Below are positions 9,301-58,734 of a DNA stretch of 64,000 nucleotides, piece by piece. Numbering within the stretch: position 1 is the stretch's first letter; every line of letters starts with the position of its first letter. Under the pieces are notes generated by a model. The model made no database searches, was not told the DNA's origin, and saw only the letters and a program-made list of their open reading frames with translations. The position numbers and the translations under genes are program-made. Location of the stretch: the IMG/VR virus record IMGVR_UViG_3300045988_126281; one strand, given 5' to 3'. The stretch comes from a virus.

Positions 9301-12300
9301 TTGAAGTTTATTTGAATAACCAACTCCAGTTACTTGAGCAGCATGCCAACCAGGAAGAGTTTGTCTAGTAATAGATTTATTAAACATTGCTTGAGCAATA
9401 CTTTCAAGTTTGCTTGCAACGTTATTCATAAAATTAGGCATATCTACAGAGCCATCTTCGTTTGGAGTAATATATTCAATAAAATTACTATCCATACCAA
9501 GACGTTCAGCTTCAACTCTTGCTCTACGATAAAAATCTTTAAAATTAATATTGTACTTATTAAATTCTATTTGAGAAGCAGTAAGTGGATTACCATTTTC
9601 ATCAGTAGTTTTATAGAATCTATTTTGAATTTTATTATCAACAAATTCAAGACCTATATTAAAAAGAAGTTGATTAAAACTATTTTTAATATTAGCAGAA
9701 AAAGCTGTTTGAAGATTATTTACAGATTTCTTAACAGATGGATTACCACTATTAAGATTATCTTGAATCTTCTTCATAATTTGAATACCAGCTTTATTTT
9801 CTTCATCAACCATATGGTCAATAACATCTTGTTGTTTATAAAGATTTCTATAATAATAATTTTCTACATTAGTATTATCTTTAATAGCTTCAGTAAAAGA
9901 ATCAAGTTGTAAATTTCCATTATTGTCCCATAATGTTAAAACATTTTTATTTGCAGCTTTTGATGTTTCTTTAGTATTTAATTGTGCTATATCATTATCA
10001 ACCATTAGACGATAAATATAATCTAAATCTGAACCTTTAGGAAGTAATTTTGGTATTATTACAAATTCGGCATTCTTTATCTGTCTTGGATAATAAACTT
10101 GATTAACAGAATCATAAGCAATATCATAATAAACATTCTTTTGAGGCTGAATGCGAGCATTAATTTCATTAAGCTCATCACCTGTTAACTCATAATTTTC
10201 ATCAATAAGCTTCCAAAGTAAATCTTTATAATCATTAAGAGTACCATCATAATATCTACGACGAATAAATTCATCAAGAGTAATAAAAGATTGAGCATCA
10301 TTTACTTTTGCAACAGCTTCATAACCTTTAGTGATATATTCAGCAGTGGCATTAGCCTCTTTTTCAATTTGAGATTTAGCAGCATTAATATATTTATTGT
10401 TGAGAGATTTATAATATTCATTAAATTCTTCAACAGACATTTTATAAATCTCTTCAGCAGTTTTATCTAAATGAAGTTCTTTAGCTATATTAGCAATACT
10501 TCTTCTAATTCTTTCACGATAAATTTGTTTTCTTTGTTCTTCAATTTTATCATAAGAATTAATAGTATTATAAATAGTAACAGCTCTAAATCCATTTTGG
10601 GCATAAGTTTTATCAACTTTAGTAAGACCATTAGGAGTCATAAGATTTCTACTAATAGAAACTTTTTCACCTTTATCATTAGTTAAAAGAATTTCTTCTT
10701 TATTTCCATTTCTATCAGTAACTTCTGTAATTTCGCCTCCAATTTCTTTTCCAAAATCAAATCCACTAAAAACTTTACCTCCCATTTGAGTCTCTTTAGC
10801 TCTCTTAAGAAAAGTTTGTGCATCTTTATAAAATTTATCAGAACCTTCAAATATATCATCAAATGACATATAATCAAGAGTCATATTATAAATAGCAGCT
10901 TTAATAGTGTCTTGATTTATATCAGAAGGAAGAATATCAATAAACTCTTGAGATTGAGTTTGAATATAATTATCATAGGCTTTTACCCATTCTTGTATAA
11001 TAGGATTAATAATTTCATTTACTTTTTGCTCATCAAATATTAAAGTTTTGTTATCTTTATTTGTTTGAACAAATTTAATCAATGAATGATTAGGATTGAT
11101 ATGAAGAGTTCCATTTTCTTCAATAAACAAAGGATTGTTTATGGTTTGATTATTAGCACCCTCCCTGTAAAGGGATAATGATTCTATAATCTTACGACCA
11201 TAATCAATTCCATTAATATTAAATAGTTTTCCAAAAGTAAATGCTCTACCAGCTAATTCAAGATGATTATTAACTTTTTTAATAAGTTTTCCGTCTTTTC
11301 CAAGATGATAAGTATCATAAAGATTTTTAGTATTTGTTTTAAGATTAAACTTATCATCGAAAACATTCATCACTTGAGTAATAAAATTTTGAAGTTCTCC
11401 AAGAACATTATTACGAAGTCCAATATGAACAGCTGAACTAAAATTATAACTTGTACGATTAGGAAATTCTGATTGTAAAAGAGTATAAGATTCTTGTTGT
11501 CTAATAAGATAATTAAGAATAATATCTAAAGGATTAACTTTATTGTCCGAAACTATAGAACTAATAGTAGCTTCTTTAAATATATTTCTTGTTTTTCCAG
11601 TAGTATCTCCAACTTTTTTTGCTTTAAGATAAATAACAACTCTATCTTGAGTTTCTCCAATATCAATTCCAAAAGGAAGATAATAATCTTTACCTTGTTT
11701 GATTGCTTTACTAAAAGGAAAATTAAATTCTTCTTTGATTCCATTATTTTTAATAATATTTAAAAATAGTTTAGCATTATCTTTAGTAAGCAATTCAGTT
11801 TTTGAAATTTTATTAAGAAGTTTATCTTTAATAAGTTCTTGATTAACTTTATCACTAAGATTAGCTAAATATTTATTAAAAATATCAGAATTAAGTCCTT
11901 CTTCATCAGTAATAAAAATATTATTTGTAGGAATAATAGGCATTTGAACTGTGAATATATTAGAAGCATCAGAAGGGATTCTCATAAATATATTAGTAAA
12001 ATTATTTTGTTTACTATTTGAATCTTTTAATACTTCTGAATTACTATTGTTTTTATAATTAATAGCTGCTTTAAAAGCATACATATTAGCAAGAAAATAA
12101 TCAGGCTTAGCCATTTGTTGATAAACAGTTCCATCTTGTTCAGCAACACTTCTAACGCCATCAAATAAAGCAATATCGAACGCATTAATAACATCTATAT
12201 TTGCTTTAATTCCAGCTCTATCTTTAGTAAATAAACCTTTGACTATTTGTTTACTTCCATCATTAATTCCAAATAAAATATTACTATAACGATAATATTT

Positions 12301-14580: not shown

Positions 14581-17500
14581 TTATCGACAACGGAAATTTA
14601 ATTCATTAGAATCGATTTGTGATTGAATTAAGTGCCTATCAGCAACCTCGAATCTATTTACATAATCGCCCATTGTTGATATTCGAGAAATACCATTTAA
14701 GCTAACATTTGGATTTGCAGCATAAACTTCAGCAGCAATATCATTTGAATCAGTAAGTTCATCAAACATAGAAAAATCTTCATCATCTTTAATAGTAAAA
14801 GGATTATCTGTTATATCAGAATCATCTGTTTCATCAGTAGTTGATTCATCTTCAGAAGTTAATTCTTCATCAGTAAAACCAGAAAGAAAATCATCTATAT
14901 CAGATTGTTCTTCTTGTTGTTTTTCAGTATTATCTTGAATAGTATTAGATTCTTCTTTAATTTCATTATCTTCTCTTATGGTATCAGTTGATTCTTCTGC
15001 CAATTCCTCTACGGGCAGACTGCTAATATCTTCTTCTTGTTGAATACTACTTGTAAAGTCAAGAGTACTACCAGTATCATCACCAAGAATATTATATATT
15101 TCTGTAAATATAGTATTATTTTTTGATTTATCAATACCAAATATATCGAGTATTGCATCTATAATTTTTTGAAGAAGAGATTTATGCTCTTCTTTATATT
15201 CAATAGCAGTTTCTTTACCAACAGGAATAGTATTAAGATATTGCATAAGAACACTTTGACTAAATACTTCAGAAACCCATTCTTTAGCTATTTGAATATC
15301 AGTTGTATAAGTTTTATTAAAGTTATCTGCAAAATTTCTTAATATTTCAGCATAAGCTCCATCATATGTTTCAAGAGATTTTTTAAACTCATTAAATGTA
15401 TTAACTAAAGAAATAACTTTTCCTTTATCTTTAAAGAAATCAGTTTTATCAGTAACTCTATGCATTTGTTCATGAATAAGCTCACGAAGAAGATTTTTAG
15501 GTTTATTTTGAATTTGGTCTAATCCAAGTTTACCAATAAAAATTTTACCTTTTTCTTCTTTTTTACCTTTAGTAATATATCCTCCATAAACATTACTTCT
15601 TGGTTTAATAAGAACTTCATTTGGAATAAATCCACCATCAAAACGAGCATCAGCAAATTTTTGATTAAGTTTTTTAATTTTATCTAAATCAATTCCAATA
15701 GAATTAAGCTCATCTTTAAAAGTATCAAGAAGTTCATTAGAAGTAATTGATTTCTTTTGTTTAACTTCAACAATTTTTTCAGCAGTAGTTTTTGATTGTT
15801 GAAGATGGCTTTCATTAATTTTAGGAGGAGTAATTTTTTCAAGTTTTACAAACAAAGAATTAAAGTTATAAGGCTTAGCAACAGTACCTTGAGAACCTCT
15901 TCTCATATGACTTGTAGTAACAGCATTATTACTAACAAGAAAATCAGAATAAGATTCATAAAGATGATTAAATCCACCTATATTAACTTGAATGCTTCCA
16001 TTGGCATTTCTTGTTACATATTGACTAAGTTGCTTATTTGTACCAATATCTTTAAAAGCAAAATTAGCCATATTAAATTCAAGATTTTCAGCAATAATTT
16101 CTTCAACAATATTTAATCCTGTAGAAACAGATTCATTTTTATTACGAGCATTAATCTTTTTATTTTTACCATAAAATATAATTTGATTAGTATAATAATA
16201 AATTTCATCTTGTGGAAGAACTATTTTACCTTTAGAATTAACAAGTTCTTTCTTTTTGGCATCATAAGTTACATCAGCAAATTTTTTAAAAGTAATAATG
16301 CGTTCATATTTAACTATATCTTGTTTATTCTTATATTGTCTAAGTAAATGAACGCCTGTTGAATCTTTACTGATAATAATTCCTTTAAATATAGAATTAC
16401 TTCCATAACTAAAAATAGAACTTAATTGATTGTAAAGATTATCGAAATCAATAGATGATTTATTTTTCTTAGCAAAATAATCATTAATTATTTTTGTAAG
16501 TTCATTATAAACTCCTTTATAAAGTTCTTTTGATTGAGCGACTTTATTAGTGCCATTAAATAAAGCAACAATAGGACTTCCATTTTTATTTTCTAAAACC
16601 ATTCCATAACTACCTGGCATAAAAGTGGCAGGATTATTATAATGATTTCCATTTTCATCAACACCTTCAGTAATATTTGTAAACATAATAACAGGATGTC
16701 TAGTTTTACCATTTAAAGATTTTTCTCTAACAGCTTTACCTAAACCTAAATTTCCAATATCATTTTGTTTACTACTATCATAAAGCCATTCTAATTCAGA
16801 ACTATCAAGAGATTGAAGAGTGATTTCATAATCAACTTTACCATTATCTTCTAACTGAGTTTGTAAATCATAAGTTCTGTTATAATTGTTCCAAACAGAT
16901 TGAATATAATTGTAATAAGAAAGATATAATGATTCTTTATCTAAAGATACTTTGTTATTTTGGCTTCTATAATTATAAAAAATTATACCATTAAGAGGAG
17001 AAATAATGCGTTTTTTAACTTTATTAATTAATTCATTTTTTCCTTGAGGAGATTTATTTTTAGTATTAATATCAAGAACACCAAAAGTTCCATCTTCAAT
17101 AAAAGGTTTAATTATTGGACTATTTAAAAGTTCTAAACAATAATCATAAAGAGCATCTCCTTGTAAATAAGTATTAGGATTAGCAATAAAATCAAAAAGT
17201 TTTTGATAATCTTTATTGCTTCTTTGAATAAGTTCATAAATAAATCCATCGATATTACTTTCAATACCTTCTTTTGTTTTAGTTACTTCTGGTCTAAATC
17301 CATATTCTCCTTTTCTACGATAAGTATTGCCATCAGCACTTCTATTAACAGTATCTATAAATCCAATTTCATTACCTTCTTCATCAACAAAACTAAGAGA
17401 AGCTGGGTCTTTTTTAGCTCCAACCCAACGTTCAGTTTTTTTAACAAAAATTTTCTGTCCAATAGATTTTTTAATAGTAGTTGGACTTTTAGTAGCATTT

Positions 17501-20500
17501 TGCCCAACTTGAATATGCAAACTATTTTCAGAAATTTCAACTGAAGTTGCAGCATTATATAAATCATCAAGTATTTTAGAAGTAGAATTATTAAGATATT
17601 CTATATTTCTAAAAGAATATCCTAAAGATTCAGTATGAGCAAAACTAATTTTAGTTTTAACATTTTCCCCTATTGTAAATTGAAATCTTGCAATTTTTCT
17701 AAGACCTTCAAGAACAGTAAGAAAATCATCAAGAGTAATTTGTTTAGCAACATCAGTTTCATTTTTTCTCATCTGTTGATAAAAATAATTAATAACATCT
17801 TTCATATCAATTACAGTAAGTTCTTTACCGTTTTTGATAATATGATTTCTACCAACAGTGTTAAGATATTCTTTAAAAGTATCTTCAATTAATTTTTTAA
17901 TAGAATCTTCATCATTAATTTCATCGAATCTACTAAAATTTCTATTGCTTGTAACATCAAGATTACCTTGATGAATAATTGTTTCAAGGTTAGCAATTAT
18001 TTGTTTAAGAGCAGGAATTACTTTATTTGCAGCTTTAGAATTAACTGATTCAGCTCTTTGTTGAATGTAGTACATTGTTCTTGAAAGAGCAATAGGAGCT
18101 TCTATTTCTGCTTCAGCCTTATCATAGCCTTGACTAACTAAATCAGAAATGATAGCATCAATAAAACTTTGACGAGCTACATTATCGTTAGGATAATTTA
18201 AAAGATTTTCATAAAGTTCTTTATGCTTAATAAGAATATTAAAAGAACTTTGATAAGCAGCTTCTTTTATATCAAGTTTAGTATTGCCAAACATTTCAGC
18301 TTCTTCAGTAAGAACTTTTTCTTCTTCAGCAGTCGGCCTAGATTCAACTTCGTTTTCATCAATAACTGGCTCAGTAGCAATTTGATTTTCTTCAGAAACA
18401 TATTCAATACTTTCAGAAGTATTATCAATAACTTCATCTGATTGTTCTTCCTTTACAGGGGAACTTATAGGAGTTGTTTTCAGAACATTAACTTCTATTG
18501 GAGGAGTTTTAGTTTCTTCAGAAGTAGTTGAAACAGTAAGAACAGATTCATCTGTCCTGCCCGTAGAGGAATCAGTTTCTATTCCATCATTTTCCACTCT
18601 ATTTTCATTAGCTTCATTTTGTGCTTGTCTATCAAGTTTGGCTTGAATAGCCATATCAAATAAACTATTAATTGTTTCTCTATTATTAGCACCAATTTTA
18701 AGAGTAAGCATGTCATTATGAAGCCTACGAGAAATATTAGTGTCATTAAGTAAATCATTAATAGCTTTTTCAGTATCTTCTGCTCTATCAATATAATCAA
18801 TAACTCTATTTAACGAATCTCCATAACGAGATGCTGCATTAGTAACAACTTGGCTTTCTATATCTTCAAAATACTTTTGTAATTCTTTTTTACCTTTAGG
18901 AATCCAAGAAGAATATATAGCATCATCAACATAAAGATTAGCACGAGCAAAAGCTTTTCTTAATTGTTCGTTAGTATAAGTTCCTGCTTCAAAAACTTTA
19001 GGTTTATAAAGTTCTTCAAACTTAATTTGAATTTCGTCAATAGTTTCTTGATTAATTTTAATACCAGAATCTTTAATGTATGTTTGGAAATCGCCAATAG
19101 TGTTTTGAGCAGCAAGATTTAAAAGACCTTCTTTTGCTTCATTAAGTTCTTTAAGTCTTGATTGATAACCGGCTTCAGATAGCGCTCTTCCATTAGTATC
19201 AATTTTACCTCGTTTAGAATTTAAATCAGTAATTTGTCTATCAATAGCAATAAGATTTTCATTAATTATATCATCAAGACTTTGGTTTAATAATTCTGTT
19301 TCAGAAACAATATCTGAATCTATATCAAGTTGATTTTTTTCTTCTCTAATTCTATCAACTTTATTTTGAAGTCTTGTAAGACTTTTAGCAGCTATTCTTG
19401 CAATATCGTTATTTACTATGTCAGTGTTATCAATAAAATCAAAAAGATTTTGATTATATCTTTCAACAACTTTATCCATAGTGTTAATAAGACTTTGTTC
19501 AAGCTGAGAATCTATTTGAATACCTTCTTGTTCATAATATTTATTAAACTCTTTGCTTGAAACAAATTCTTTAAGCAAATCATAGTTACCGTTTTCAGCA
19601 GCATTAATTGCAATATCGGTAACAAAATTATCAGTAGCTTGTTTTCTAAGTCTATTTTCTTGTTCTTCACTAATTGTATCAGCAAGTTCGTTAGAACCTT
19701 CTTTAGTCTCAAAAGGATTTTTATGTTCAGCAATTTGTCTCATTTGCTCAACATAATTATTCATTAAATTAAAACGATTATTAATATCATTAACACGAGC
19801 AACATTTTCACCTAATTCAAGAGCATCATACTGTTCTTGAGTTATTTTACCAGCTTTCTTTTTATAATTATTTTCAAGACGATTATAAAATTTTCCAAGA
19901 CCTCCTCCAGCAATTTTAAATCCAATTCCGCCTATAACTCCCCAAAATGCTTGGTCCCAAATACTTCCATCAGTTAAATAATCAGCAGCAGTTTTAGCAG
20001 TATAATTAGGGTCTGTATAAATATTAACAAGTTCTTCTCCACGTTGTTGTTGAATACCTTGCCAACCTTCTTCTATACCTTCACCAAGTTCAAGGACTCT
20101 CCAAGAATTTAATGGATTTTTAATATCAGTAGCAAGTCCTTTTAAAAATTTATTTTTAAGACTTTTCTCAACAGCTTTTTCATCAATAACTGCACCAGTC
20201 TTTTTTGCAAGATTAATAATAGATTCTGCTTGAGCTTTTCTAACAGCACCTGTAAGAGCTTTATTTTCTATACCTTTCCAAATATTAGAAATAGCTTTAA
20301 ATTGAGGAATATCCATAGCGAGTAAATACATATCATTAACATACGTATTATGACCTGCTTCAGAAGCAATTTTTTTAGCAATTTCTTCTTTAGAAAGTTC
20401 TGCAAATTGAGGATTATTTTCAATAAAAGTTTTATAATCGTTATCTGACATATTAGATAGTTCATTATTCATACTATCTAATACAGAGGTATAAACATCA

Positions 20501-21288
20501 CGAGCTTCAATATAATTTTCACCAATTCTGCTTATAAGAGCCATAGAACCGACTTTAGCACCTTGTTTAATCTTAGTAGCAGTTCTAGCAACTTTATCTG
20601 TTACACCAACTGCTTTAAGTCCTTTAGCTGCTCCAATTGCAACTTTATTTCCGACTTTATTAAGTTTAGTAAGTTTTCCTAACCAAGAAGCTCCTTTAGC
20701 AATACTACCAGAAGGTATAAGCAAACTAAGAGTTGAACCCATAGACACAAGTCCGTTCATATACCAACCAAAATCATTAAAAGCAAAATTTTTATCAGGT
20801 TCTTTTCTATAAATTTCCCAATCTTCTCTAACAGCATCTTGAGCATTAGCAAGAGCCTCAGACAATGGATTTGTAAAATCATTATCTTTACTAAATCCAG
20901 CCAAATTAACGGCAGAATCAAATAAATCACTAAAGCCTCTAAAAGTACCTAAAAGAACTTCAGATATAACAAGTTGACCAGCAAATCTACCAAATTGTTC
21001 AAGAGCACTTTGATTTTTTGCACGTTCTTTATTTAAATCTTCTTCTGTAACTCCAATACCTGGAATAGCTCCATATTCAGTATATTTATCATAATCTTTT
21101 TCAGACATTCTAAAATCAGCATTAGTTTCAGCAGCAGAACCAGAAACTTTAGGAGCAGTAGTTATATGACTTATTTCTTCATTATTAGTAGCAGTTAAAG
21201 GAGAAGCTAAAAGCTCCTCCTTATCAATACCGTTAATTGTATCTTTACTACTACTATTATTTTTTAATCTTTCGAGAAGTGTAGGCAT
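14581..21288 (-). CDS. Large (2235 aa) virion/ejection protein; acidic Ser/Thr/Glu-rich N-terminal third
   Basis: Long ORF in the same operon as the giant RNAP-like gene. Size and position match the ejected cargo/RNAP-associated proteins of crAss-like phages. No specific motif recognised. Confidence 0.5.
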   Translation of the reverse strand: MPTLLERLKNNSSSKDTINGIDKEELLASPLTATNNEEISHITTAPKVSGSAAETNADFRMSEKDYDKYTEYGAIPGIGVTEEDLNKERAKNQSALEQFGRFAGQLVISEVLLGTFRGFSDLFDSAVNLAGFSKDNDFTNPLSEALANAQDAVREDWEIYRKEPDKNFAFNDFGWYMNGLVSMGSTLSLLIPSGSIAKGASWLGKLTKLNKVGNKVAIGAAKGLKAVGVTDKVARTATKIKQGAKVGSMALISRIGENYIEARDVYTSVLDSMNNELSNMSDNDYKTFIENNPQFAELSKEEIAKKIASEAGHNTYVNDMYLLAMDIPQFKAISNIWKGIENKALTGAVRKAQAESIINLAKKTGAVIDEKAVEKSLKNKFLKGLATDIKNPLNSWRVLELGEGIEEGWQGIQQQRGEELVNIYTDPNYTAKTAADYLTDGSIWDQAFWGVIGGIGFKIAGGGLGKFYNRLENNYKKKAGKITQEQYDALELGENVARVNDINNRFNLMNNYVEQMRQIAEHKNPFETKEGSNELADTISEEQENRLRKQATDNFVTDIAINAAENGNYDLLKEFVSSKEFNKYYEQEGIQIDSQLEQSLINTMDKVVERYNQNLFDFIDNTDIVNNDIARIAAKSLTRLQNKVDRIREEKNQLDIDSDIVSETELLNQSLDDIINENLIAIDRQITDLNSKRGKIDTNGRALSEAGYQSRLKELNEAKEGLLNLAAQNTIGDFQTYIKDSGIKINQETIDEIQIKFEELYKPKVFEAGTYTNEQLRKAFARANLYVDDAIYSSWIPKGKKELQKYFEDIESQVVTNAASRYGDSLNRVIDYIDRAEDTEKAINDLLNDTNISRRLHNDMLTLKIGANNRETINSLFDMAIQAKLDRQAQNEANENRVENDGIETDSSTGRTDESVLTVSTTSEETKTPPIEVNVLKTTPISSPVKEEQSDEVIDNTSESIEYVSEENQIATEPVIDENEVESRPTAEEEKVLTEEAEMFGNTKLDIKEAAYQSSFNILIKHKELYENLLNYPNDNVARQSFIDAIISDLVSQGYDKAEAEIEAPIALSRTMYYIQQRAESVNSKAANKVIPALKQIIANLETIIHQGNLDVTSNRNFSRFDEINDEDSIKKLIEDTFKEYLNTVGRNHIIKNGKELTVIDMKDVINYFYQQMRKNETDVAKQITLDDFLTVLEGLRKIARFQFTIGENVKTKISFAHTESLGYSFRNIEYLNNSTSKILDDLYNAATSVEISENSLHIQVGQNATKSPTTIKKSIGQKIFVKKTERWVGAKKDPASLSFVDEEGNEIGFIDTVNRSADGNTYRRKGEYGFRPEVTKTKEGIESNIDGFIYELIQRSNKDYQKLFDFIANPNTYLQGDALYDYCLELLNSPIIKPFIEDGTFGVLDINTKNKSPQGKNELINKVKKRIISPLNGIIFYNYRSQNNKVSLDKESLYLSYYNYIQSVWNNYNRTYDLQTQLEDNGKVDYEITLQSLDSSELEWLYDSSKQNDIGNLGLGKAVREKSLNGKTRHPVIMFTNITEGVDENGNHYNNPATFMPGSYGMVLENKNGSPIVALFNGTNKVAQSKELYKGVYNELTKIINDYFAKKNKSSIDFDNLYNQLSSIFSYGSNSIFKGIIISKDSTGVHLLRQYKNKQDIVKYERIITFKKFADVTYDAKKKELVNSKGKIVLPQDEIYYYTNQIIFYGKNKKINARNKNESVSTGLNIVEEIIAENLEFNMANFAFKDIGTNKQLSQYVTRNANGSIQVNIGGFNHLYESYSDFLVSNNAVTTSHMRRGSQGTVAKPYNFNSLFVKLEKITPPKINESHLQQSKTTAEKIVEVKQKKSITSNELLDTFKDELNSIGIDLDKIKKLNQKFADARFDGGFIPNEVLIKPRSNVYGGYITKGKKEEKGKIFIGKLGLDQIQNKPKNLLRELIHEQMHRVTDKTDFFKDKGKVISLVNTFNEFKKSLETYDGAYAEILRNFADNFNKTYTTDIQIAKEWVSEVFSQSVLMQYLNTIPVGKETAIEYKEEHKSLLQKIIDAILDIFGIDKSKNNTIFTEIYNILGDDTGSTLDFTSSIQQEEDISSLPVEELAEESTDTIREDNEIKEESNTIQDNTEKQQEEQSDIDDFLSGFTDEELTSEDESTTDETDDSDITDNPFTIKDDEDFSMFDELTDSNDIAAEVYAANPNVSLNGISRISTMGDYVNRFEVADRHLIQSQIDSNELNFRCR
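15006..15018 (-). repeat. 17-nt motif copy (CTGCCCGTAGAGGAATT, minus-sense) in the 2235-aa gene
   Basis: + strand cctctacgggcag. Encodes SLPVEEL. Confidence 0.8.
18557..18569 (+). repeat. 17-nt motif copy (CTGCCCGTAGAGGAATC) in the 2235-aa gene
   Basis: Encodes DSSTGRT on the coding strand. Confidence 0.8.
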
Positions 21289-33777: not shown

Positions 33778-34452
33778 TTATTTCATAAGATTAAGAGTAG
33801 GAATTTCATTAGTTTGTCTTACAATATTAGGATTAAATGTTTCAAGAACAAGTTTTTTAATATCACCAATCATATCTTCAGAAATCATAAATTCATCATC
33901 GTCAGAATAATTATATTCTTTATTGAAATGCTCTTCTGGAATTTCAAATGGATTTTCAAAAGCAGCTTCAACTATAATTTGATTTGTAAGAAGCAATCTA
34001 TCTGAATTACGAAGATTAATATAAAGATATTGATTAATATAGTCATAAGATTCGAGACAAGCCATTCCAGGAAGACAAGTATAAAACTTAGCAGAAGGTT
34101 CTTTAATAAAAGGAATTTCAATAGGATTATCAAATCCAGTAGTTCTTATAGAAATAAAAGGATGCCCATTATCAATACGAACAGGCCCTGGAACTCTATT
34201 AAGGCTACGTTTGACTTTTTTAAGGTTTAAATCAAAAGTGTCGCTAATATCACCATCAGGACAATCAATTAAAGTAATTTTAAATCTTTGCTGAAGAACT
34301 TTATCAACATATCCATGAGAACTATAAGTATTACGAATTAGTCTATTACGAGCATGAATAATACCAAGTCTAATAGCATTTCTTACAGGAACACTATCTG
34401 CTTGTTGAACACTATGAGCAATCTCAGAAATTAATTGATTAATAGATGCCAT
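33778..34452 (-). CDS. Hypothetical protein (224 aa)
   Basis: ORF preceded by a hairpin plus T-run terminator (34515-34559), so probably the first gene of a transcription unit. Confidence 0.4.
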   Translation of the reverse strand: MASINQLISEIAHSVQQADSVPVRNAIRLGIIHARNRLIRNTYSSHGYVDKVLQQRFKITLIDCPDGDISDTFDLNLKKVKRSLNRVPGPVRIDNGHPFISIRTTGFDNPIEIPFIKEPSAKFYTCLPGMACLESYDYINQYLYINLRNSDRLLLTNQIIVEAAFENPFEIPEEHFNKEYNYSDDDEFMISEDMIGDIKKLVLETFNPNIVRQTNEIPTLNLMK

Positions 34453-34909: not shown

Positions 34910-35731
34910 TTAAACATTATGAACTTCAACATAAATATTAATTAAATCATTAAGTGAGTTATAAAGTGGAATAACACTATCTCTTATACATTTATATATA
35001 GTATTATTTTGAGAATAATATTTATTAGCATAAAGAATCATATTTCCATTATATGGAATAGGGTCTTCAACAGTACCTTTATTTTGTTCATTAATTTCAG
35101 TATAAACAGTAGCAGCATCAGTCGGAAGCCAATTTGATTGAACAGTATGTTTAAGTAGCGCTTTAAACAATCTATCGTTATATATAAGTTTAGTATTAAC
35201 ATCTATCTCTTTACCAATTAGTTCTTCCCATTTAGGATATATAGATTTAATATTTACAGATTCTTCATCAGATAAATTAAATTTATTAGAAACTATTTTA
35301 ATAAAAGATTCAATATCTGAATTTTTTATTAAATTATGTTTAGTAAAATCTTTTTTCTGAATATTAAAATCATTTCGCACTTTATCTTTTATAATACTAA
35401 CAGTTTCAAGATATTCTTTATATTCAGAAAACTCTTCGTCAGAAATAAGCATATCAAGTTGCATTTTAGAAGCTACATTTATAAACTTAAATTCTTCTTC
35501 TAAAGTATAATAATTTCTAATAATAGCTTTAGCGCAATCAGAATAATTAGGAAGTCCAGAAAGTTTAACCCAAGTACAAAGCCAATAAGGTTTGTTTTCT
35601 GTTTTTCCATCAATATCAACTACATCTTCATTACCAGTTTCAATAACATAAGTATAGATATAATTGTTATTACCAAGCCTATTAATAATTATAGGCTGTT
35701 CATTTGTCTTAAATAATTGTTTGATTTCCAT
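34910..35731 (-). CDS. Hypothetical protein (273 aa) downstream of the DGR reverse transcriptase
   Basis: ORF overlapping the RT 3' end by 43 nt. Not Avd-like (too large, not basic). Confidence 0.4.
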   Translation of the reverse strand: MEIKQLFKTNEQPIIINRLGNNNYIYTYVIETGNEDVVDIDGKTENKPYWLCTWVKLSGLPNYSDCAKAIIRNYYTLEEEFKFINVASKMQLDMLISDEEFSEYKEYLETVSIIKDKVRNDFNIQKKDFTKHNLIKNSDIESFIKIVSNKFNLSDEESVNIKSIYPKWEELIGKEIDVNTKLIYNDRLFKALLKHTVQSNWLPTDAATVYTEINEQNKGTVEDPIPYNGNMILYANKYYSQNNTIYKCIRDSVIPLYNSLNDLINIYVEVHNV

Positions 35732-36906
35732 ATTTTAATAGTAGTTGGAAGTATTTTGTTTATTATAGTTTTATAAAGTATTTTATTAGTAGAAACAGTA
35801 TAATAAGAATGACCCTTATAAATAAAATTAATTTTAAAATACTTATTATGAACATCTATATCAATAACATTTATAACCTTATCATAAAGATTAGAAATTT
35901 TAATATAAGGAGCTACCCAATTAGTATATTTAATTCCTGTAAGTTTTTGAATTTTATAAAGAAGATTTTTAGAATTACAATATTTACACCAACCAAAATA
36001 AGAACGAAAATGAATTTCAAAATATTTTTTATCTATGGTTCTGTTAACATAAGAATATACAAGTTTCATAATATTCTTTTTAATACTTTTTCTTAAAAGT
36101 ATATAATTATGATAAAACTTATATCCAATAAAATCAATACCTCTTTTGTCAACTTCAAATATTTGATAATTTTCTTTAAGTTCTAATTTAAGAACTTGAT
36201 GTAAATACATTTTTATAAGTATTAAAATCTTTCTAAGTTCTTCTTTAGTTTTTCCTAAAATAACAATATCATCTGCATATCTAAAATAAAATTTACATTT
36301 AACTTCTTCTTTTAGCCAATGGTCAAAATAGGTTAAATATAAATTAGCAAAGAATTGAGAAAGATAATTTCCAATAGGAACTCCATCAGAAGATTCAATA
36401 ATATCTTTAAGTAAAATTAAAAGTTTGTTATCTTTAACTTTTCTTTTTATAATTTCAAAAAGAATTTCATGGTTAATAGAAGGATAAAATTTCTTTATAT
36501 CTAGTTTAAGACAATATTTAGTGTTTTCAATATTATTTTCAAGACACTTTTTTAAATCTCTGTTAAGTTTAGTAATTCCTCTTTCTTTAACACAAGAATA
36601 AGTATGAGAAATAAAAATATTAACCCAGATAGGTTCCATAATATTCATAATAGCATGATGAGTAATTCTATCGGGATAATATGGAAGTTTAAAAATTAAT
36701 CTTTCTTTAGGTTCATAAATTTTAAAAGTAGTATAAGTAGAAGTATGATAGTTAAGATTTATTAAATCATTAAGAAGTTTTTCATTTTCTTCTTTTCTAT
36801 GTTCATTATGTTTTATAATATCTTTTCTAAGTTTTTTATCATTACTTGCTTTGTCATCAGCATATTCAATATTATCTTTAGTACAAATTTTTTTCAAAAA
36901 GACCAT
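35689..36906 (-). CDS. Reverse transcriptase of a diversity-generating retroelement (405 aa)
   Basis: RT motifs present: PKERLIFKLPYYPDRITHHAI (motifs 1-2), LKLDIKKFYPSINHEIL (motif A Asp), GVPIGNYLSQFFANLYL (the IGxxxSQ variant of motif B typical of DGR RTs), RYADDIVILG (YADD catalytic motif C) and GIDFIGYKF (primer grip). The template repeat lies immediately upstream. Confidence 0.85.
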   Translation of the reverse strand: MVFLKKICTKDNIEYADDKASNDKKLRKDIIKHNEHRKEENEKLLNDLINLNYHTSTYTTFKIYEPKERLIFKLPYYPDRITHHAIMNIMEPIWVNIFISHTYSCVKERGITKLNRDLKKCLENNIENTKYCLKLDIKKFYPSINHEILFEIIKRKVKDNKLLILLKDIIESSDGVPIGNYLSQFFANLYLTYFDHWLKEEVKCKFYFRYADDIVILGKTKEELRKILILIKMYLHQVLKLELKENYQIFEVDKRGIDFIGYKFYHNYILLRKSIKKNIMKLVYSYVNRTIDKKYFEIHFRSYFGWCKYCNSKNLLYKIQKLTGIKYTNWVAPYIKISNLYDKVINVIDIDVHNKYFKINFIYKGHSYYTVSTNKILYKTIINKILPTTIKIWKSNNYLRQMNSL

Positions 36907-37040
36907 TTATTCTTTTCATAATTATATTTCTATTTATAGAGCGTTCAATATTATATTTACTAACACTATGTTCGATTGCTACGTTATTTTTTACCAAGAG
37001 GTAAGGTTTAATATTTTGTTCATTAAAAAATTTGAAATAT

Positions 37041-37142
37041 AAAAGAAACTACGATTGGCATTAGCATTACTAACACTATTATTAGAATTAGAATAACTAA
37101 AACTAGCATTACTGCTATCATTAGCATTACTACTAGTTAACA
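37041..37142 (-). repeat. DGR template repeat (TR), ~102 nt, intergenic
   Basis: Homologous to 37220-37321. Rich in AAT/AGT codons in the coding sense. All ~25 mismatches against the VR fall where the TR has A on the coding strand (T on the + strand). Confidence 0.85.
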
Positions 37143-37149
37143 ATTTAAC

Positions 37150-37181
37150 TAATAACAATCAATATTAAACCTATGTTATTA
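37150..37181 (-). other. AT-rich hairpin between VR and TR (8-bp stem taataaca/tgttatta, 16-nt loop)
   Basis: Inverted repeat ~38 nt downstream of the VR end. DGRs often carry a hairpin/cruciform downstream of the VR. The stem is weak and AT-only. Confidence 0.3.
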
Positions 37182-37203
37182 ATAAACTTATGATTATAAA
37201 AAA

Positions 37204-39582
37204 TTATATTCTAATGCAAGAAAAGAAACCACGATTGGCAGTAGCAAAACCAACACCAGCACTAGAAAGAGAACAACCAAAACCAGCAGAACCGCCATCA
37301 TGAGCACGACCACCAGCGAACAGCGTTTTTTTATCAGCATTATTATTCGTGTAATGATAATCACTTTTATAAGTAACCGATGTTGCTCCAATTGTAGCAG
37401 GAATTATCTCAGCTTTGTCACCAAACACAAATGTTTTAATATAACCGTAATCCTTTGATTCAGTTCCTCTTATTTCTTTATTTAAAATATCATCATCAAA
37501 TTTTGTGTTATCAGAAGTAGCATAAATAGTATTAGCAGAATTAGCATCTGGTTTTTGTAAGATAATTCCTTCAAGATTTTTACAATAATCACCAAATAAG
37601 TTTTCAAGCCCTCTATATTTACAAGGTGTTAATGTAATAGCATTAATAGCATAAGAACCATCAATAACAATTGTTGGTATAGAAAAATCTTTTACTCCGC
37701 TAAAATTACCAATATCATTAAGATAACCACAAGGAGTAATAGGATTATAATTATTAAATTTTACCCAAGCATTTGATTGAGAAAAAGTGGTTAATCCATT
37801 ACCAAGACCTCCTTGATGATAACCATCACTTGTTAATTCTGCATTAAATGGGAGTTGACAATTAAAATTAGCATATTCTACATAATAACACCAACAAAGA
37901 GCCTTATAAAAATCATAACAAAGAATCTCTTGATTATTAGCAGCATTAGCTATATATGTTCTCATAGTAATACGAGAAACATTTGTAACCGGTTTACCAA
38001 GATTACTTCTATAAGGTAGTGTGTCTAAATAACTGTCTAAAGAAGAATCATTGCTTCCACCTCTATAAGCAGTAGAAGTATTCATAACAACACAAGCCTT
38101 AGGTGTATCAGCAATAGTTCTATCAAGTGTAATTCCCCAAGCACTAATAAGCAATCTTGGGACTTCAGTCCAAGTATTATCAACTTTTGTTAATGACATT
38201 CTAAACTGACGTTTATTACCGTTTTCAAATCCTTTATAATACCATACGTTTCCAGTATCAACACGTACATCTCCATCAGTTCCATCAAGTACAGAAGCAG
38301 AGCCATCAGCCTTTTTAGACCAATCGTTAGGGTCAAGATAATATTGAACTTTATTTCCTTTAGCAACGCAGCCCTTAAATGCAGATTGAATAGGAAGAGT
38401 ACGATGCATCGACATATTACCTATACGAGCACAGGCTGAATCAGCTACTGTAATATCCCATTCAATACCATAACTTATTTGGTCAAGAAAATTAACAGAA
38501 ATAGTACCATCAGCATCAACATCAATTCCTGAGCCTATCTTTACAACACCTAACTTATCCTGTGCAGCTTTTGGCAAATCATCAAAAATAAGATTTCCAT
38601 CAGCTCCTTTTTTAAGATATTGTCCGGCACTACCGCCTTCAGGCAAGATTACATTCTCACCCTCTTTAATTTTTGTTACGGTACCATCAGTAGCAATATT
38701 ATATTTTACTACATGTCCATTAGCAGTATTAATATTAGCCACTCCTCCATCAGTACTGTTCCATGTAGCTACACCATAACCATAATCAATAGATACAAGT
38801 TGAGTTCCTGTATGTAATTGTTCTATATTAAATGCCTTTATCTCAGCAGAATCTCCAATCTCTAGATGAGTATATTCTTCAAGTTTATCAATATCAACAG
38901 AAGCAAAACTTGAAGTTTCTCCTGTTTCAAATGAAACATCTTCTATTTTAAGAGCACCATTAACTACAAAAGTAACTGTACCGTTAAAATAATTACCAAT
39001 ACATTTAAGTCCGTTGTTATTTGTAACAATAACTGGAATCGATTGATTAGTAGAATATTTAGCAGTAACTTCAAGATTCTTTGCCTTAGATTCATCAGAA
39101 TTATCGAGATATATTGTTTCATCTGCTCCACTTCCACCACCTTTATTTCCAATAGCTCTTGCGTACCATTCTGTAAATTCTCCTTCACGAGAAAAATAAT
39201 CCCATCTATATGGAGAATAATTATCATTAACTTCAGTAGTAGTTAAAGTAACATTAAAAATAGGAATACCTCCAATACCTTCAATAACTTGAATAGTAAC
39301 TTCAGCATTTGCTATATTATTAGGTAAGTCAGACATATTAACTTGACCTTGGAACATATCATTAAGAGAAATAGTTCCTGCATAATAAGCATCATTAAGA
39401 GATTTAAAGAACTCTTCAGAAGTACCATTAACTTTAACATTATTTGGAATATCTCCTATAATTCCATCAGACTTACCTCTCATGGATTTAAGATATTTCC
39501 AAAGAAATATTCTATCTTTTTTATCAAGTTGAGTTATTTTCTCAATTGTATCAAAAAGTTGTCTATCTTTTGCGTTATTCAT
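37204..39582 (-). CDS. DGR target protein: tail-fibre/receptor-binding protein (792 aa) with C-terminal variable region
   Basis: The last ~34 codons (...LFAGGRAHDGGSAGFGCSLSSAGVGFATANRGFF...) form the variable repeat. It is homologous to the intergenic template repeat and differs only at template adenines. The Cys/Trp/Tyr-rich C-terminal ~250 aa are compatible with a C-type-lectin-like fold. Confidence 0.8.
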   Translation of the reverse strand: MNNAKDRQLFDTIEKITQLDKKDRIFLWKYLKSMRGKSDGIIGDIPNNVKVNGTSEEFFKSLNDAYYAGTISLNDMFQGQVNMSDLPNNIANAEVTIQVIEGIGGIPIFNVTLTTTEVNDNYSPYRWDYFSREGEFTEWYARAIGNKGGGSGADETIYLDNSDESKAKNLEVTAKYSTNQSIPVIVTNNNGLKCIGNYFNGTVTFVVNGALKIEDVSFETGETSSFASVDIDKLEEYTHLEIGDSAEIKAFNIEQLHTGTQLVSIDYGYGVATWNSTDGGVANINTANGHVVKYNIATDGTVTKIKEGENVILPEGGSAGQYLKKGADGNLIFDDLPKAAQDKLGVVKIGSGIDVDADGTISVNFLDQISYGIEWDITVADSACARIGNMSMHRTLPIQSAFKGCVAKGNKVQYYLDPNDWSKKADGSASVLDGTDGDVRVDTGNVWYYKGFENGNKRQFRMSLTKVDNTWTEVPRLLISAWGITLDRTIADTPKACVVMNTSTAYRGGSNDSSLDSYLDTLPYRSNLGKPVTNVSRITMRTYIANAANNQEILCYDFYKALCWCYYVEYANFNCQLPFNAELTSDGYHQGGLGNGLTTFSQSNAWVKFNNYNPITPCGYLNDIGNFSGVKDFSIPTIVIDGSYAINAITLTPCKYRGLENLFGDYCKNLEGIILQKPDANSANTIYATSDNTKFDDDILNKEIRGTESKDYGYIKTFVFGDKAEIIPATIGATSVTYKSDYHYTNNNADKKTLFAGGRAHDGGSAGFGCSLSSAGVGFATANRGFFSCIRI
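37220..37321 (-). repeat. DGR variable repeat (VR) at the 3' end of the target gene
   Basis: Lies in the last ~34 codons of 37204-39582. The 3'-terminal ~19 nt (gccaatcgtggtttctttt) are near-identical to the TR and may act as an IMH-like element. Confidence 0.85.
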
Positions 39583-57651: not shown

Positions 57652-58068
57652 TTAAAGATGTTTAAGATTATAAAGAAGAGCTTCAGTAATTTTATTTGTA
57701 GGTGTCATACCAAGACTTGCAGAAATAGCTATTGCAGCAGCTGAACAGCCTCTATTAACACAATCATCAAAAATTTCATTAGCAATTTTTTGAACTCGAA
57801 CAGAATCTAATTCAAATTTGTCCCAATATTCTTCTTTATAAATATCTTTGATACAAGCGGTAAGCCAATTATTAGCCTTAAGTCTTTTATTAATCCCAAT
57901 AAGACCATTAGTTCTTTTATCTTCATCTATAACTTTCCAAATTCTTGATTTAGGGTGTGCTCTTCGACTAATACCCATATATGTTTCTCCACCAGCATCA
58001 TTAGGGTCATTCACATATCCTCCTTCATGAAAGATAGTTCTTTGAAAGGCAATGTCAAAATTAGCCAT
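57652..58068 (-). CDS. GH108-family lysozyme (endolysin catalytic domain), 138 aa
   Basis: N-terminus MANFDIAFQRTIFHEGGYVNDPNDAGGETYMGI matches the GH108 signature (EGGYVNDPxDxGGxTxxGI). Confidence 0.7.
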   Translation of the reverse strand: MANFDIAFQRTIFHEGGYVNDPNDAGGETYMGISRRAHPKSRIWKVIDEDKRTNGLIGINKRLKANNWLTACIKDIYKEEYWDKFELDSVRVQKIANEIFDDCVNRGCSAAAIAISASLGMTPTNKITEALLYNLKHL

Positions 58069-58074
58069 AACTCA

Positions 58075-58356
58075 TTAACAAATAAACCAATCATTTGCAA
58101 GAATATCACTATTAGAAGGATTCCAATGCTCTACACAAGGAACATTATCTTCATTAATCCAACAAGAAGAAATAATAGCATTTCCTTTAACGCTACCGTA
58201 ATGCTCAGCAATCTTTTTAAGATTAGGGTCAAAACATTTATCAGAAGTAATTAAAAATTCTGGTTTAATCCAAAGAAATTTACCAGTTCCGTTCCAAGCT
58301 TTCCTAGAAACTTGTTCTCCAGCTTTAAGCTTATAAAGTGCTTCACTAAAATCCAT
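58075..58356 (-). CDS. DUF2829-like small phage protein (93 aa)
   Basis: N-terminus MDFSEALYKLKAGEQVSRKAWNG fits the ALxxLKxGxKVxRxxWNG pattern of DUF2829. Function unknown. Confidence 0.35.
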   Translation of the reverse strand: MDFSEALYKLKAGEQVSRKAWNGTGKFLWIKPEFLITSDKCFDPNLKKIAEHYGSVKGNAIISSCWINEDNVPCVEHWNPSNSDILANDWFIC

Positions 58357-58365
58357 AATTTTATT

Positions 58366-58734
58366 TTAATTGTTTAATGTACGTTTAATCCAACCTTTAT
58401 AATATTTCATTTGAGAAGGTTTCTTATCAACAATATCAGTATATTTTCTGATACGTTCAAGTTTATATTTATAATAAAAAGTATTAGCTTTAGCATCTTT
58501 AATTGAATCTATATAAAGTTTTATTTTTTCATCTCTTTTAGCAAGTTCAACTTCATATAAATCTATACAATCTTGTTTAATACTTAACTGCCTGTAAAGG
58601 GAATCAATAACTTTTGTAGTACTATCTTGATAATTTCTATTAACTTTATCAGCATCAATTACAATAGTTTCAATTCTTCTTCCACAACTTATAAGAAGAA
58701 AACTGAAAATTAATAAAATTTGTAATTTTTTCAT
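58366..58734 (-). CDS. Lipoprotein (122 aa), o-spanin-like
   Basis: Signal peptide with lipobox (MKKLQILLIFSFLLISC). Adjacent to the lysis genes. Confidence 0.45.
   Translation of the reverse strand: MKKLQILLIFSFLLISCGRRIETIVIDADKVNRNYQDSTTKVIDSLYRQLSIKQDCIDLYEVELAKRDEKIKLYIDSIKDAKANTFYYKYKLERIRKYTDIVDKKPSQMKYYKGWIKRTLNN
58588..58600 (+). repeat. 17-nt motif copy (CTGCCTGTAAAGGGAATC) in the lipoprotein gene
   Basis: Encodes DSLYRQL. Confidence 0.75.

Follow-up and report, generated by a model that had tools for sequence, protein, structure and literature searches.

The sequence analysed here is a window of 64,000 nucleotides (the whole stretch of viral DNA that was available), and it contains on the minus strand a compact cassette of: i) a 792-codon gene encoding a tail-like protein, the 3' end of which holds a variable repeat (VR); ii) an intergenic template repeat (TR); iii) a conserved structured RNA; and iv) a gene encoding a reverse transcriptase (RT). 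The positions of these features and of the smaller elements around them are collected in Table 1.

Table 1. Features of the cassette and their positions in the 64,000-nucleotide window
Feature	Position	Strand	Details
Target gene, 792 aa, tail or tail-collar-fibre-like protein	37204-39582	minus	ORF; PHROG 5302
VR	37221-37322	minus	codons 754-787 of the 792-codon target gene
Conserved VR 3' end, IMH-like	37221-37239	minus	matches the TR 3' end except for one A>G
VR-TR spacer	37143-37220	minus	last 5 target codons, stop (37204-37206) and a non-coding stretch
AT inverted repeat, 8 bp	arms 37174-37181 and 37150-37157	minus	in the VR-TR spacer
TR	37041-37142	minus	non-coding, intergenic, 134 nt upstream of the RT ORF
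Conserved structured RNA	36929-37007	minus	TR-RT spacer; sub-threshold Rfam matches and covariation
Canonical RT start codon; A7 run	36917-36919; 36888-36894	minus	start out of frame
RT ORF, DGR type, 405 aa as it stands	35689-36906	minus	Pfam RVT_1, E 1e-18
RT C-terminal extension, residues 326-405	35692-35931	minus	small beta-rich domain

The two repeats align best at an offset of exactly 180 nt; the position that a preliminary description of the locus had given for the VR (37220-37321) is one base off, and the repeats fail to match in that register. The same description had counted about 25 substitutions, all facing a template adenine, and this was confirmed in full: 25 of the 102 aligned positions differ, 25/25 mismatches lie at TR adenines, and all 71 non-A positions of the TR are identical in the VR (P = 1.7e-18 for all 25 mismatches on the 31 adenines, if mismatch placement were random). 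Six of the 31 TR adenines are unchanged. A 26th difference (A/C) falls at 37040/37220, immediately past the end of the homology, and was placed outside it since all 117 homologues have Ser788; the 103-nt comparison comprises 14 A>G, 8 A>C and 4 A>T changes. Read in the frame of the VR, 22 codons of the TR contain an A (9 AAT, 9 AGY, TTA, ACT, GAT and TAT), as compared to the about 18 diversifiable codons estimated earlier. The VR is followed by five more target codons and the stop, and no second VR was found within the 64-kb window. The A-only mismatches, the location of the VR inside a coding gene and the presence of a non-coding TR beside an RT gene together identify the locus as a diversity-generating retroelement (DGR).

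The target had been described as the C-terminal tip of a tail gene, in agreement with the location of the VR and with the match of residues 361-790 to PHROG 5302 'tail protein' (E 3e-78). The C-terminal domain is 30% identical to the tail-collar fibre protein of crAssphage LMMB and to gp54 of p-crAssphage, and residues from about 345 to 792 constitute a widespread C-terminal module of the receptor-binding type, which was recovered in 1635 clusters at 50% identity with N-terminal parts of differing length. The relatives end in the motif GGxAxxGxxAGLGxxxSxxGVxxAxxxxGFR. For the C-type lectin (FGE-like) fold, the candidate fold on which the VR would be displayed, the domain profile had no match in PDB sequences or Pfam, the full-length AF2 model was unusable (pLDDT 38.5), and an hhalign comparison with Mtd gave a weak alignment (probability 0.8%) that paired VR with VR alone (GG...G(F/A)R). 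The LMMB homologue was put in CLec3 by its authors, who called the similarity not high (PMC7290462).

The RT motifs that had been listed for the locus are all present in the 405-aa ORF, among them IGNYLSQ and YADD, which correspond to the motif 4 consensus [LIV]GxxxSQ and the YxDD catalytic site by which RTs of the DGR clade are recognized. The best PDB match is Bordetella bRT (8ub7, E 8.6e-40), as against values of about 1e-14 to 1e-16 (none better than 5e-16) for the group II and retron-type RTs in the PDB, and the nearest relatives among phage genomes are the RTs of crAss-like phages (52-58% identical; LMMB 52%). On these sequence criteria the RT would be placed in the DGR clade. With the closest solved relative being bRT, and with the group II and retron models below their cut-offs, the earlier expectation that the enzyme is of neither of these types was upheld. 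The candidate types that were tried and rejected are the group II intron type (TIGR04416, 114 bits against a cut-off of 300), the retron type (St85 model, 65 against 235) and the defence type (Drt3a, 61 against 200), and a search of the region with Rfam found no intron or retron RNA family. The C-terminal extension of the RT is possibly OB-fold-like; about 20% of DGR RTs reportedly carry uncharacterised C-terminal extensions (PMC5758913).

The preliminary description had called the DGR complete. TR, VR and RT are indeed all present, but the conserved RT start (36919) is out of frame because the A7 run contains one additional A. Six aligned related loci (L019-L024, with three distinct intergenic sequences) and locus L107 have A6 at the same site, and L025 has AAAAGA. 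The RT of L019-L025 and L107 has 409 aa and begins MKRINGLFEK; that of the present genome begins MVFLKK, from the ATG at 36906. The additional A may impair the RT of the present genome, or it may have arisen as an error of sequencing. The cassette could accordingly be a fossil in this particular genome, with a VR that was diversified earlier and an RT now disabled by its 5' frameshift, and the displaced start together with the N-terminal MKRxGxL motif, which is conserved throughout the RT family, would fit such a state. We nevertheless consider it unlikely: the in-frame ATG keeps 400 of the 409 residues with all catalytic motifs included, the alignment of bRT to the RT ORF begins only at residue 6, the TR is fully intact with its 31 adenines, and one surplus A in a homopolymer is an error that sequencing or assembly often produces.

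Protein variation was analysed in a set of 117 sequences (the target protein of the present genome and 116 homologues). The nine AAT-templated codons coincide with the nine highest-entropy columns of all 792, and 99% of the residues found there are NNT-encodable. The 117 proteins have 112 unique VR peptides, as compared to 21-36 unique peptides in four conserved control windows of 34 residues and 84 in one window adjacent to the VR. At the DNA level, three near-isogenic assemblies of a single SRA series (loci L109, L110 and L111-L113) differ from one another at 14-18 positions in 2685 nt, and all of these positions are within the VR; they have a single identical TR of their own, and each VR/TR mismatch lies at a TR adenine. 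L019-L022 and L107 have a TR nearly identical to the present one and a different VR. The hypervariability that had been anticipated for related genomes is thus confined to A-templated codons, and the DGR is active in nature, as seen in these relatives. A separate observation concerns several relatives in which the TR itself was overwritten through A-to-N changes.

Phage fibres often have hypervariable receptor-binding tips, and entropy is raised also outside the VR (residues 595-627 and 727-753), as could be expected if positive selection and recombination, rather than RT mutagenesis, had diversified the tip in the homologues. This origin is nonetheless very improbable, as the variable columns match the TR adenines codon for codon, the amino-acid spectrum is limited to NNT-encodable residues, and the DNA of the near-isogenic genomes differs only at TR-adenine positions. 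An origin of TR and VR by plain duplication and divergence, or by recombination, beside an RT of group II intron, retron or defence origin, is already refuted and has practically no probability left: the NCBIfam and PADLOC matches of the RT do include group II, retron and DRT models, but far under the curated cut-offs given above, the region has no intron or retron RNA family, the A-only pattern has a P of about 2e-18, and near-isogenic genomes differ in the VR alone. The adenine-specific transfer from TR to VR that had been proposed at the outset is therefore sustained by the A-only mismatches, the DGR-type RT and the A-templated hypervariability in relatives alike.

The interval between target and RT had been described as entirely non-coding, and it contains no ORF, but it is not featureless: the TR-RT spacer holds the conserved structured RNA. 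This RNA has a P1 hairpin (36991-37004), followed by an A-rich linker, AAAAAUAACGUAG, and by the helices P2/P3 (36937-36968) that surround a UAGUA...GAA internal loop. The layout is like that of the Rfam families RT-17 and RT-18 (5' hairpin, A-rich linker, helix around UAGUA...GAA internal loops; Weinberg et al. 2017, PMC5737381), which likewise lie just upstream of the RT gene. The models are matched over their full length but the scores fall below the gathering thresholds (RT-17, RF03020: 31.5 bits against 40.4; RT-18, RF03021: 29.4 bits against 41.3), and none of 18 related loci matches RT-17 or RT-18 at the gathering threshold. In 18 diverse spacers the pairing holds in 95.8% of cells, as against 37-57% in slid controls, compensatory changes occur among the relatives in 8 of the 12 pairs, and, of 96 sources, 91 have a single match to a covariance model of our own, immediately upstream of the RT. 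The spacer RNA is presumably the counterpart of the spacer (Sp) RNA of BPP-1.

The preliminary description had noted that an avd-like ORF is missing, and the searches agree: there is no ORF for Avd between target and RT, 10 small ORFs gave no relevant Pfam match, and BPP-1 Avd as a query retrieved nothing (phmmer, tblastn) from the six-frame translated 64-kb window, with about 25 kb of the genome lying outside it. This absence had been considered atypical. It is, however, typical of the lineage, since Wu et al. found 29% of DGRs to be without an accessory gene and avd to be missing from lineage 3 (PMC5758913), and since the same target-VR-TR-RT cassette without avd was reported from crAssphage LMMB in 2020 and placed in lineage 3 (Morozova et al., PMC7290462). 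The terminase of the present phage is 74% identical to that of cr3_1 (Diorhovirus, Intestiviridae) and 62% to that of LMMB. With LMMB and other genus I AlphacrAssvirinae the cassette shares the order target-VR(IMH)-TR(IMH*)-RT and the lack of avd; in LMMB, IMH and IMH* are reported to be identical and the VR comprises ~35 codons at the C-terminus of the tail-collar fibre protein, also in a crAss-like tail module (PMC7290462). LMMB differs in that it belongs to another phage lineage and that its target has 486 aa, as opposed to 792 here, with an unrelated N-terminal part; the RT start, in contrast, is frameshifted in the present genome. Lineage 3/architecture A of Wu et al. 2018 has no accessory gene, a TR directly upstream of the RT, Bacteroides-related hosts and a VR of the CLec3 type (PMC5758913). 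The present locus has the features of architecture A1 (order target-VR-TR-RT, no accessory gene, crAss-like phage context), and the similarity of its RT to LMMB-type RTs suggests that it belongs to lineage 3.

The conserved 19-nt 3' end that had been pointed out (gccaatcgtRgtttctttt) is present in both repeats (37041-37059 and 37221-37239) and is AT-rich; the repeat ends have no GC-rich IMH and no non-A difference between the VR and TR copies. The sequence of the VR-TR spacer is conserved in part across L019-L025. The AT hairpin that had been placed 38 nt past the VR exists as an 8-bp repeat with a 16-nt loop, but it begins at 39 nt and is not above chance (DNA fold z-score -0.94; 16% of shuffled sequences have an inverted repeat of 8 bp or more with no mismatch). 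It is unlike the canonical DGR hairpin/cruciform, which has a GC-rich stem of 7-10 bp and a 4-nt GRNA loop and lies 4-34 bp downstream of the VR (PMC3240598); such a GC-rich cruciform is absent downstream of the VR, the AT stem being the only candidate. The DGR of BPP-1 (mtd-avd-TR-brt) has in common with the present one the adenine-specific TR-to-VR transfer, a C-terminal VR in a tail receptor-binding protein, a homologous RT and a structured RNA (RT-10/Sp) between TR and RT. The present DGR differs in lacking Avd, a GC-rich IMH, an IMH* that differs at non-A positions and a GC-rich cruciform with a GRNA loop, and also in its spacer RNA motif (our covariance model gives no match in BPP-1) and in the 80-residue C-terminal domain of the RT, which bRT does not have. 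An Avd-dependent DGR of the BPP-1 type was rejected as a candidate (no avd, no GC-rich IMH/IMH* pair, no canonical cruciform). As there is no IMH/IMH* distinction and no GC-rich cruciform, target recognition of the BPP-1 type cannot be assumed.

The cassette is thus very probably an accessory-gene-free DGR of the Bacteroidales-phage lineage (Wu lineage 3), situated in the tail module of a gut crAss-like phage. In this DGR the RT would bind a transcript that takes in the TR as well as the structured spacer RNA downstream of it, and would make a TR cDNA with misincorporation opposite the template adenines, an outcome that is visible in the location of all 25 VR/TR differences at TR adenines. The cDNA would then take the place of its 102-nt homologue at the 3' end of the gene for the tail protein; the result of this step is seen in relatives, as near-isogenic genomes with identical TRs differ solely in the VR. 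Mainly the nine AAT-templated codons would be randomised, with NNT encoding 15 amino acids at each. At the nine AGY-templated codons almost nothing but Gly is recovered, which points to selection for scaffold glycines. Because Avd is absent, priming and RNA handling would have to rest on the RT itself and on the conserved spacer RNA, perhaps with the help of the beta-rich C-terminal domain of the RT. DGRs of this type, which function in the absence of the usual helper protein, have been described before, and the element itself is therefore an ordinary one; by analogy to the BPP-1 Mtd paradigm it would provide the phage population with very many receptor-binding tips.

The element is a genuine diversity-generating retroelement (DGR) whose target is the C-terminal tip of a tail protein, as had been interpreted from the sequence. 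An offset scan placed the template repeat (TR) and the variable repeat (VR) 180 nt apart, so that the VR lies one base from where the preliminary description had put it, in a register that gives 84 mismatches. In the correct register 25 of the 102 nt mismatch, all where the TR has an adenine, and the 71 non-A positions are identical throughout (71/71), which bears out the proposed adenine-specific substitution; the probability that 25 random mismatches would all hit one of the 31 adenines in 102 nt is 1.7e-18. Over 103 nt TR adenines are replaced in the VR by G at 14 positions, by C at 8 and by T at 4, and six of them are unaltered, and the 26th difference (A/C, 37040/37220) is the first base past the homology, because the matching Ser788 does not vary in any homologue. 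In the reading frame of the VR, the template holds nine AAT codons, nine AGY codons and four others that contain A. No further VR-like copy was recovered within the 64-kb window, also when only the non-A positions were scored; an exact pattern scan of IMG/VR with the TR (adenines as N) gave no match, and megablast against GenBank phages returned nothing beyond one 53-nt match. The species is rare in IMG/VR, where a single relative (locus L025) was reached via its reverse transcriptase (RT).

Coordinates of the features of the cassette and its surroundings
Feature	Position	Strand	Basis or remark
TR	37041-37142	minus	offset scan, sharp optimum at 180 nt
VR	37221-37322	minus	offset scan, best offset 180 nt; codons 754-787 of ORF 37204-39582 (792 codons)
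Spacer RNA	36929-37007	minus	own covariance model, 84.6 bits
A7 run	36888-36894	minus	window; A6 in loci L019-L024 and L107
CrAss_Ring_2 protein	33778-34452		evidence for a crAss-like phage
Overwritten TR regions, loci L023 (4216-4520) and L024	equivalent to window 36900-37206		ENA ERZ28659022 scaffold_192; ERZ27299766 k119_97221

All the RT motifs that had been quoted were found in ORF 35689-36906, which carries a Pfam RVT_1 domain (E 1e-18). Among solved structures it comes closest to bRT, the DGR enzyme of Bordetella phage (8ub7; E 8.6e-40, residues 6-325 aligned), versus 1e-14 to 5e-16 for the structures of group II intron and retron-type RTs; the group II, retron and defence RT models of NCBIfam and PADLOC all scored far under their cut-offs, and Rfam gave no intron or retron RNA in the region. 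The nearest RTs among GenBank phages (52-58% identity) are those of the crAss-like phages cr7_1, cr55_1 and cr52_1, crAssphage LMMB and infant-gut crAssphages, and by its sequence the enzyme would belong to Wu lineage 3. An exact-sequence look-up of the RT returned no record, and that of a 98-aa neighbour protein returned short contigs alone.

The start of the RT gene differs from that of its relatives. Alignment of the site in six related loci (L019-L024, with three distinct intergenic sequences) showed that the relatives, and likewise L107, start at the ATG equivalent to 36919 (MKRINGLFEK..., 409 aa) and carry a run of six adenines; L025 has the same start with AAAAGA in place of the run. 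In the window the conserved start is out of frame and terminates after 13 codons because the run has seven adenines, and the ORF picks up again at the ATG at 36906 with a different N-terminus (MVFLKK). The additional adenine may be a sequencing error in the homopolymer; otherwise it is a real lesion, one that perhaps impairs this copy. Separately, the RT frames of four IMG/VR loci (L037, L081, L086 and L090; ~52-179 kb) contain in-frame stops under translation table 11, possibly due to stop-codon recoding in those phages or to the approximate start offsets that were used.

We then considered the natural variation of the target, using 116 full-length homologues (79-93% identity) together with the window protein. 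The predicted hypervariability of the VR at template adenines is borne out: the nine columns of highest entropy among the 792 are exactly the nine AAT-templated codons (759, 761, 765, 772, 774, 775, 779, 781 and 783), at which 99% of the residues in the 117 sequences are NNT-encodable. The 117 proteins have 112 distinct VR peptides, versus 21-36 for four conserved control windows of equal length and 84 for a fifth that adjoins the VR. The most direct evidence comes from three homologues (P0027, P0029 and P0031) whose contigs stem from one SRA series: the proteins are identical across all 753 residues outside the VR and differ at 10-12 residues within it, and the DNA is identical over 2685 nt save for 14-18 differences, all within the VR. 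The three share one and the same TR, and wherever VR and TR differ the TR has an adenine. Differences confined to the VR in this way are the population signature that defines DGR activity, which holds for the lineage and not for the window genome itself; near-isogenic genomes differing in the VR alone make this unusually clean evidence of natural activity. Two loci of the near-isogenic group (L110 and L113; Logan SRR20632249 and SRR20632244) are contigs of 2.7-2.9 kb with the target gene alone, consistent with an assembly that broke at a heterogeneous VR and TR, that is, with VR microdiversity in the samples.

The AGY-templated codons behave differently from the AAT-templated ones in that they are nearly always Gly in the VR (e.g. 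117/117, 115/117 and 114/117), which we read as purifying selection for scaffold glycines after mutagenesis; such selection would also account for the surplus of A>G changes in the window. All nine AGY (Ser) codons of the TR stand against GGY (Gly) almost throughout the 117 sequences (VR 37230-37314). The TR as written would thus probably encode a non-functional tip, and each productive event must turn many such adenines into G; this implies that selection is strong, that conversion is stepwise or partial, or that the RT has a context bias.

The window is part of a crAss-like phage, with a GC content of 27.9%, giant ORFs, and a terminase that is 74% identical to that of cr3_1 (Diorhovirus, Intestiviridae/Crudevirinae). 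The giant ORFs (328-14454, 4708 aa, and 14581-21288, 2235 aa; minus strand) lie downstream of the tail module and share their strand with the other long ORFs of the window. Elsewhere, 58075-58356 (minus strand) encodes a protein of 93 aa whose domain is Tad2-like (Thoeris anti-defence 2; Pfam E 1.3e-17); its neighbours are a GH108 lysin (57652-58068) and a peptidoglycan-binding-domain protein (58366-58734). Residues 361-790 of the target match PHROG 5302 "tail protein", and its C-terminal domain shares 30% identity with p-crAssphage gp54 and with the tail-collar fibre protein of crAssphage LMMB, itself a DGR target. As a module this domain (~430 residues) is widespread, with 1635 clusters at 50% identity; it is C-terminal in every case, behind N-terminal parts of very different length, and ends in most relatives with GGxAxxGxxAGLGxxxSxxGVxxAxxxxGFR; a third homologue search with a diverse profile recovered chiefly one 681-aa subfamily. 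As to the fold, an AF2 model of the full-length target with 57 close homologues (pLDDT 38.5) was too poor for a fold search, the profile of the domain found no match among PDB sequences or in Pfam, and in an hhalign comparison with Mtd the two VRs alone align, in register (GG...G(F/A)R), at a probability of 0.8%. Membership of the C-type lectins would follow by analogy from the literature assignment of the LMMB homologue, whose similarity was termed "not high" by its authors (PMC7290462).

The lack of an accessory Avd gene that had been reported was confirmed for the 64 kb of the window, out of a genome about 25 kb longer, since the small ORFs have no relevant Pfam match, and neither phmmer nor tblastn matched BPP-1 Avd (from NC_005357) to the window. 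Its description as atypical did not stand, as absence is the norm for the lineage: the first crAss-like DGR has the order TG-VR(IMH)-TR(IMH*)-RT with IMH = IMH* (the 3' ends of VR and TR), it lacks avd, its RT was placed in Wu lineage 3, and 16% of the genomes of genus I carry the same cassette (Morozova et al. 2020; PMC7290462), while 29% of DGRs were found to be without an accessory gene (Wu et al. 2018; PMC5758913). The window element is an avd-less DGR, probably of lineage 3, of crAss-like/Bacteroidales phages, of a kind already published, as is the avd-less cassette on the homologous tail-collar fibre of crAss-like phages (2020; PMC7290462). It adds another lineage of ~90-kb genomes to the catalogue, with Diorhovirus as nearest named relative. 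DGRs are common in gut Bacteroidales phages.

The cassette also differs from that of BPP-1 in its target site. BPP-1 has a GC-rich IMH and an IMH* with non-A differences, whereas the window has neither, and the canonical GC-rich stem with GRNA loop is likewise absent. The 8-bp AT hairpin that had been seen past the VR is present (arms 37174-37181 and 37150-37157, 16-nt loop), but it does not rise above chance as a cruciform target signal: the fold has a z of -0.94 relative to shuffled sequences, 16% of which contain an inverted repeat of equal quality. Scans of the cassette gave weak consensus matches to promoters and no terminator; crAss-like phages transcribe with RNA polymerases of their own.

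The spacer between TR and RT has structure. It gave full-length sub-threshold Rfam matches at 36922-37008, to RT-17 (31.5 bits; gathering threshold 40.4) and RT-18 (29.4 bits). Motifs of this type were discovered near RT genes, and a further one, RT-10, is the TR-RT spacer of BPP-1; that other RT motifs also serve DGRs was a speculation of the same authors (PMC5737381). Because Rfam at gathering threshold found no RT-motif in 18 related loci, we built a model of our own from 18 diverse spacers (of loci with RTs 51-92% identical). In the consensus a hairpin (P1) is followed by the A-rich linker AAAAAUAACGUAG and then by P2/P3, which enclose a UAGUA...GAA loop. Compensatory changes occur in 8 of the 12 pairs, pairing holds in 95.8% of cells versus 37-57% when the partners are slid, and the covariation score is 0.60 versus at most 0.21 in the slid controls. 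The covariance model gave a single match per locus in 91 of the 96 sources, among them loci obtained with the target protein, always on the RT strand and directly upstream of the RT; BPP-1 gave no match, and a metagenome scan with the spacer recovered one locus alone, a duplicate of the L019 strain.

The RT itself has an additional C-terminal domain (residues 326-405) that is predicted with confidence to be folded; uncharacterised C-terminal extensions are carried by ~20% of DGR RTs (Wu et al. 2018; PMC5758913). Four viral contigs of 21-51 kb (L084, L092, L096 and L101) encode RTs of 341-343 aa without this domain, and three of them (L092, L096 and L101) still have the RNA motif, which weakens the idea of the domain as an obligatory substitute for Avd.

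In several relatives the template itself has been overwritten. In two independent assemblies (L023 and L024; RT intact and 98% identical) the 308-nt intergenic region differs from that of the related locus L019 at 31 sites, of which 30 have an adenine replaced (by G in 19, by T in 7 and by C in 4). Of these 30, 28 fall within the TR, leaving 3 of 31 adenines, and the other two, both A>G, are found upstream of it, 7 and 16 nt from its boundary, in a stretch without homology to the VR. The overwritten template does not reproduce the VR of its own genome. When the IMG/VR loci were compared in pairs over the 330 nt before the RT start, three further independent cases of partial overwriting emerged: L089 versus L086/L087 (24 A>N across the 3' 85 nt of the TR), L077 versus L066 (6 A>N in the final 30 nt) and L044 versus more than 12 near-identical loci, L046 among them (7 A>N at the 5' end and in the upstream A-run). 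The 3' part of the L025 TR shows AAT>TAT/TCT/TAT. Assembly chimeras are an unlikely source of the overwritten TRs, since TR and VR have no common exact run longer than ~10 nt, the L023 changes reach unique sequence upstream of the TR, and two independent assemblies concur. The simplest reading is that mutagenised cDNA now and then homes into the TR itself, and in L023/L024 it looks as though the homed cDNA destroyed the template. This fits the indistinguishable 3' ends of TR and VR (IMH = IMH*), owing to which the TR would not be fully shielded from its own cDNA; the directionality of BPP-1 is reportedly due to IMH/IMH* differences (in the work of Doulatov in 2004 and of Guo in 2008). A full-text literature search for DGR self-homing found no paper.

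Wu et al. (2018; PMC5758913) acknowledge as an open question how Avd-independent DGRs prime and target their cDNA. We tentatively propose, as a possibility that we rate somewhat below an even chance, that the lineage-specific RT-17/18-like RNA between TR and RT would take over the role that Avd and the Sp RNA have in BPP-1, that in the crAss/large-phage subclade the RT may assist through the possibly OB-like domain fused to its C-terminus, and that self-retrohoming would be an inherent path to the erosion and death of such DGRs. In itself the element holds modest interest and is outweighed by these side observations: the covarying RNA motif, the folded extra RT domain and the A-to-N overwritten TRs offer testable handles on Avd-independence, and the spacer RNA, the extra domain and the apparent TR self-mutagenesis bear on how Avd-independent DGRs work and decay.
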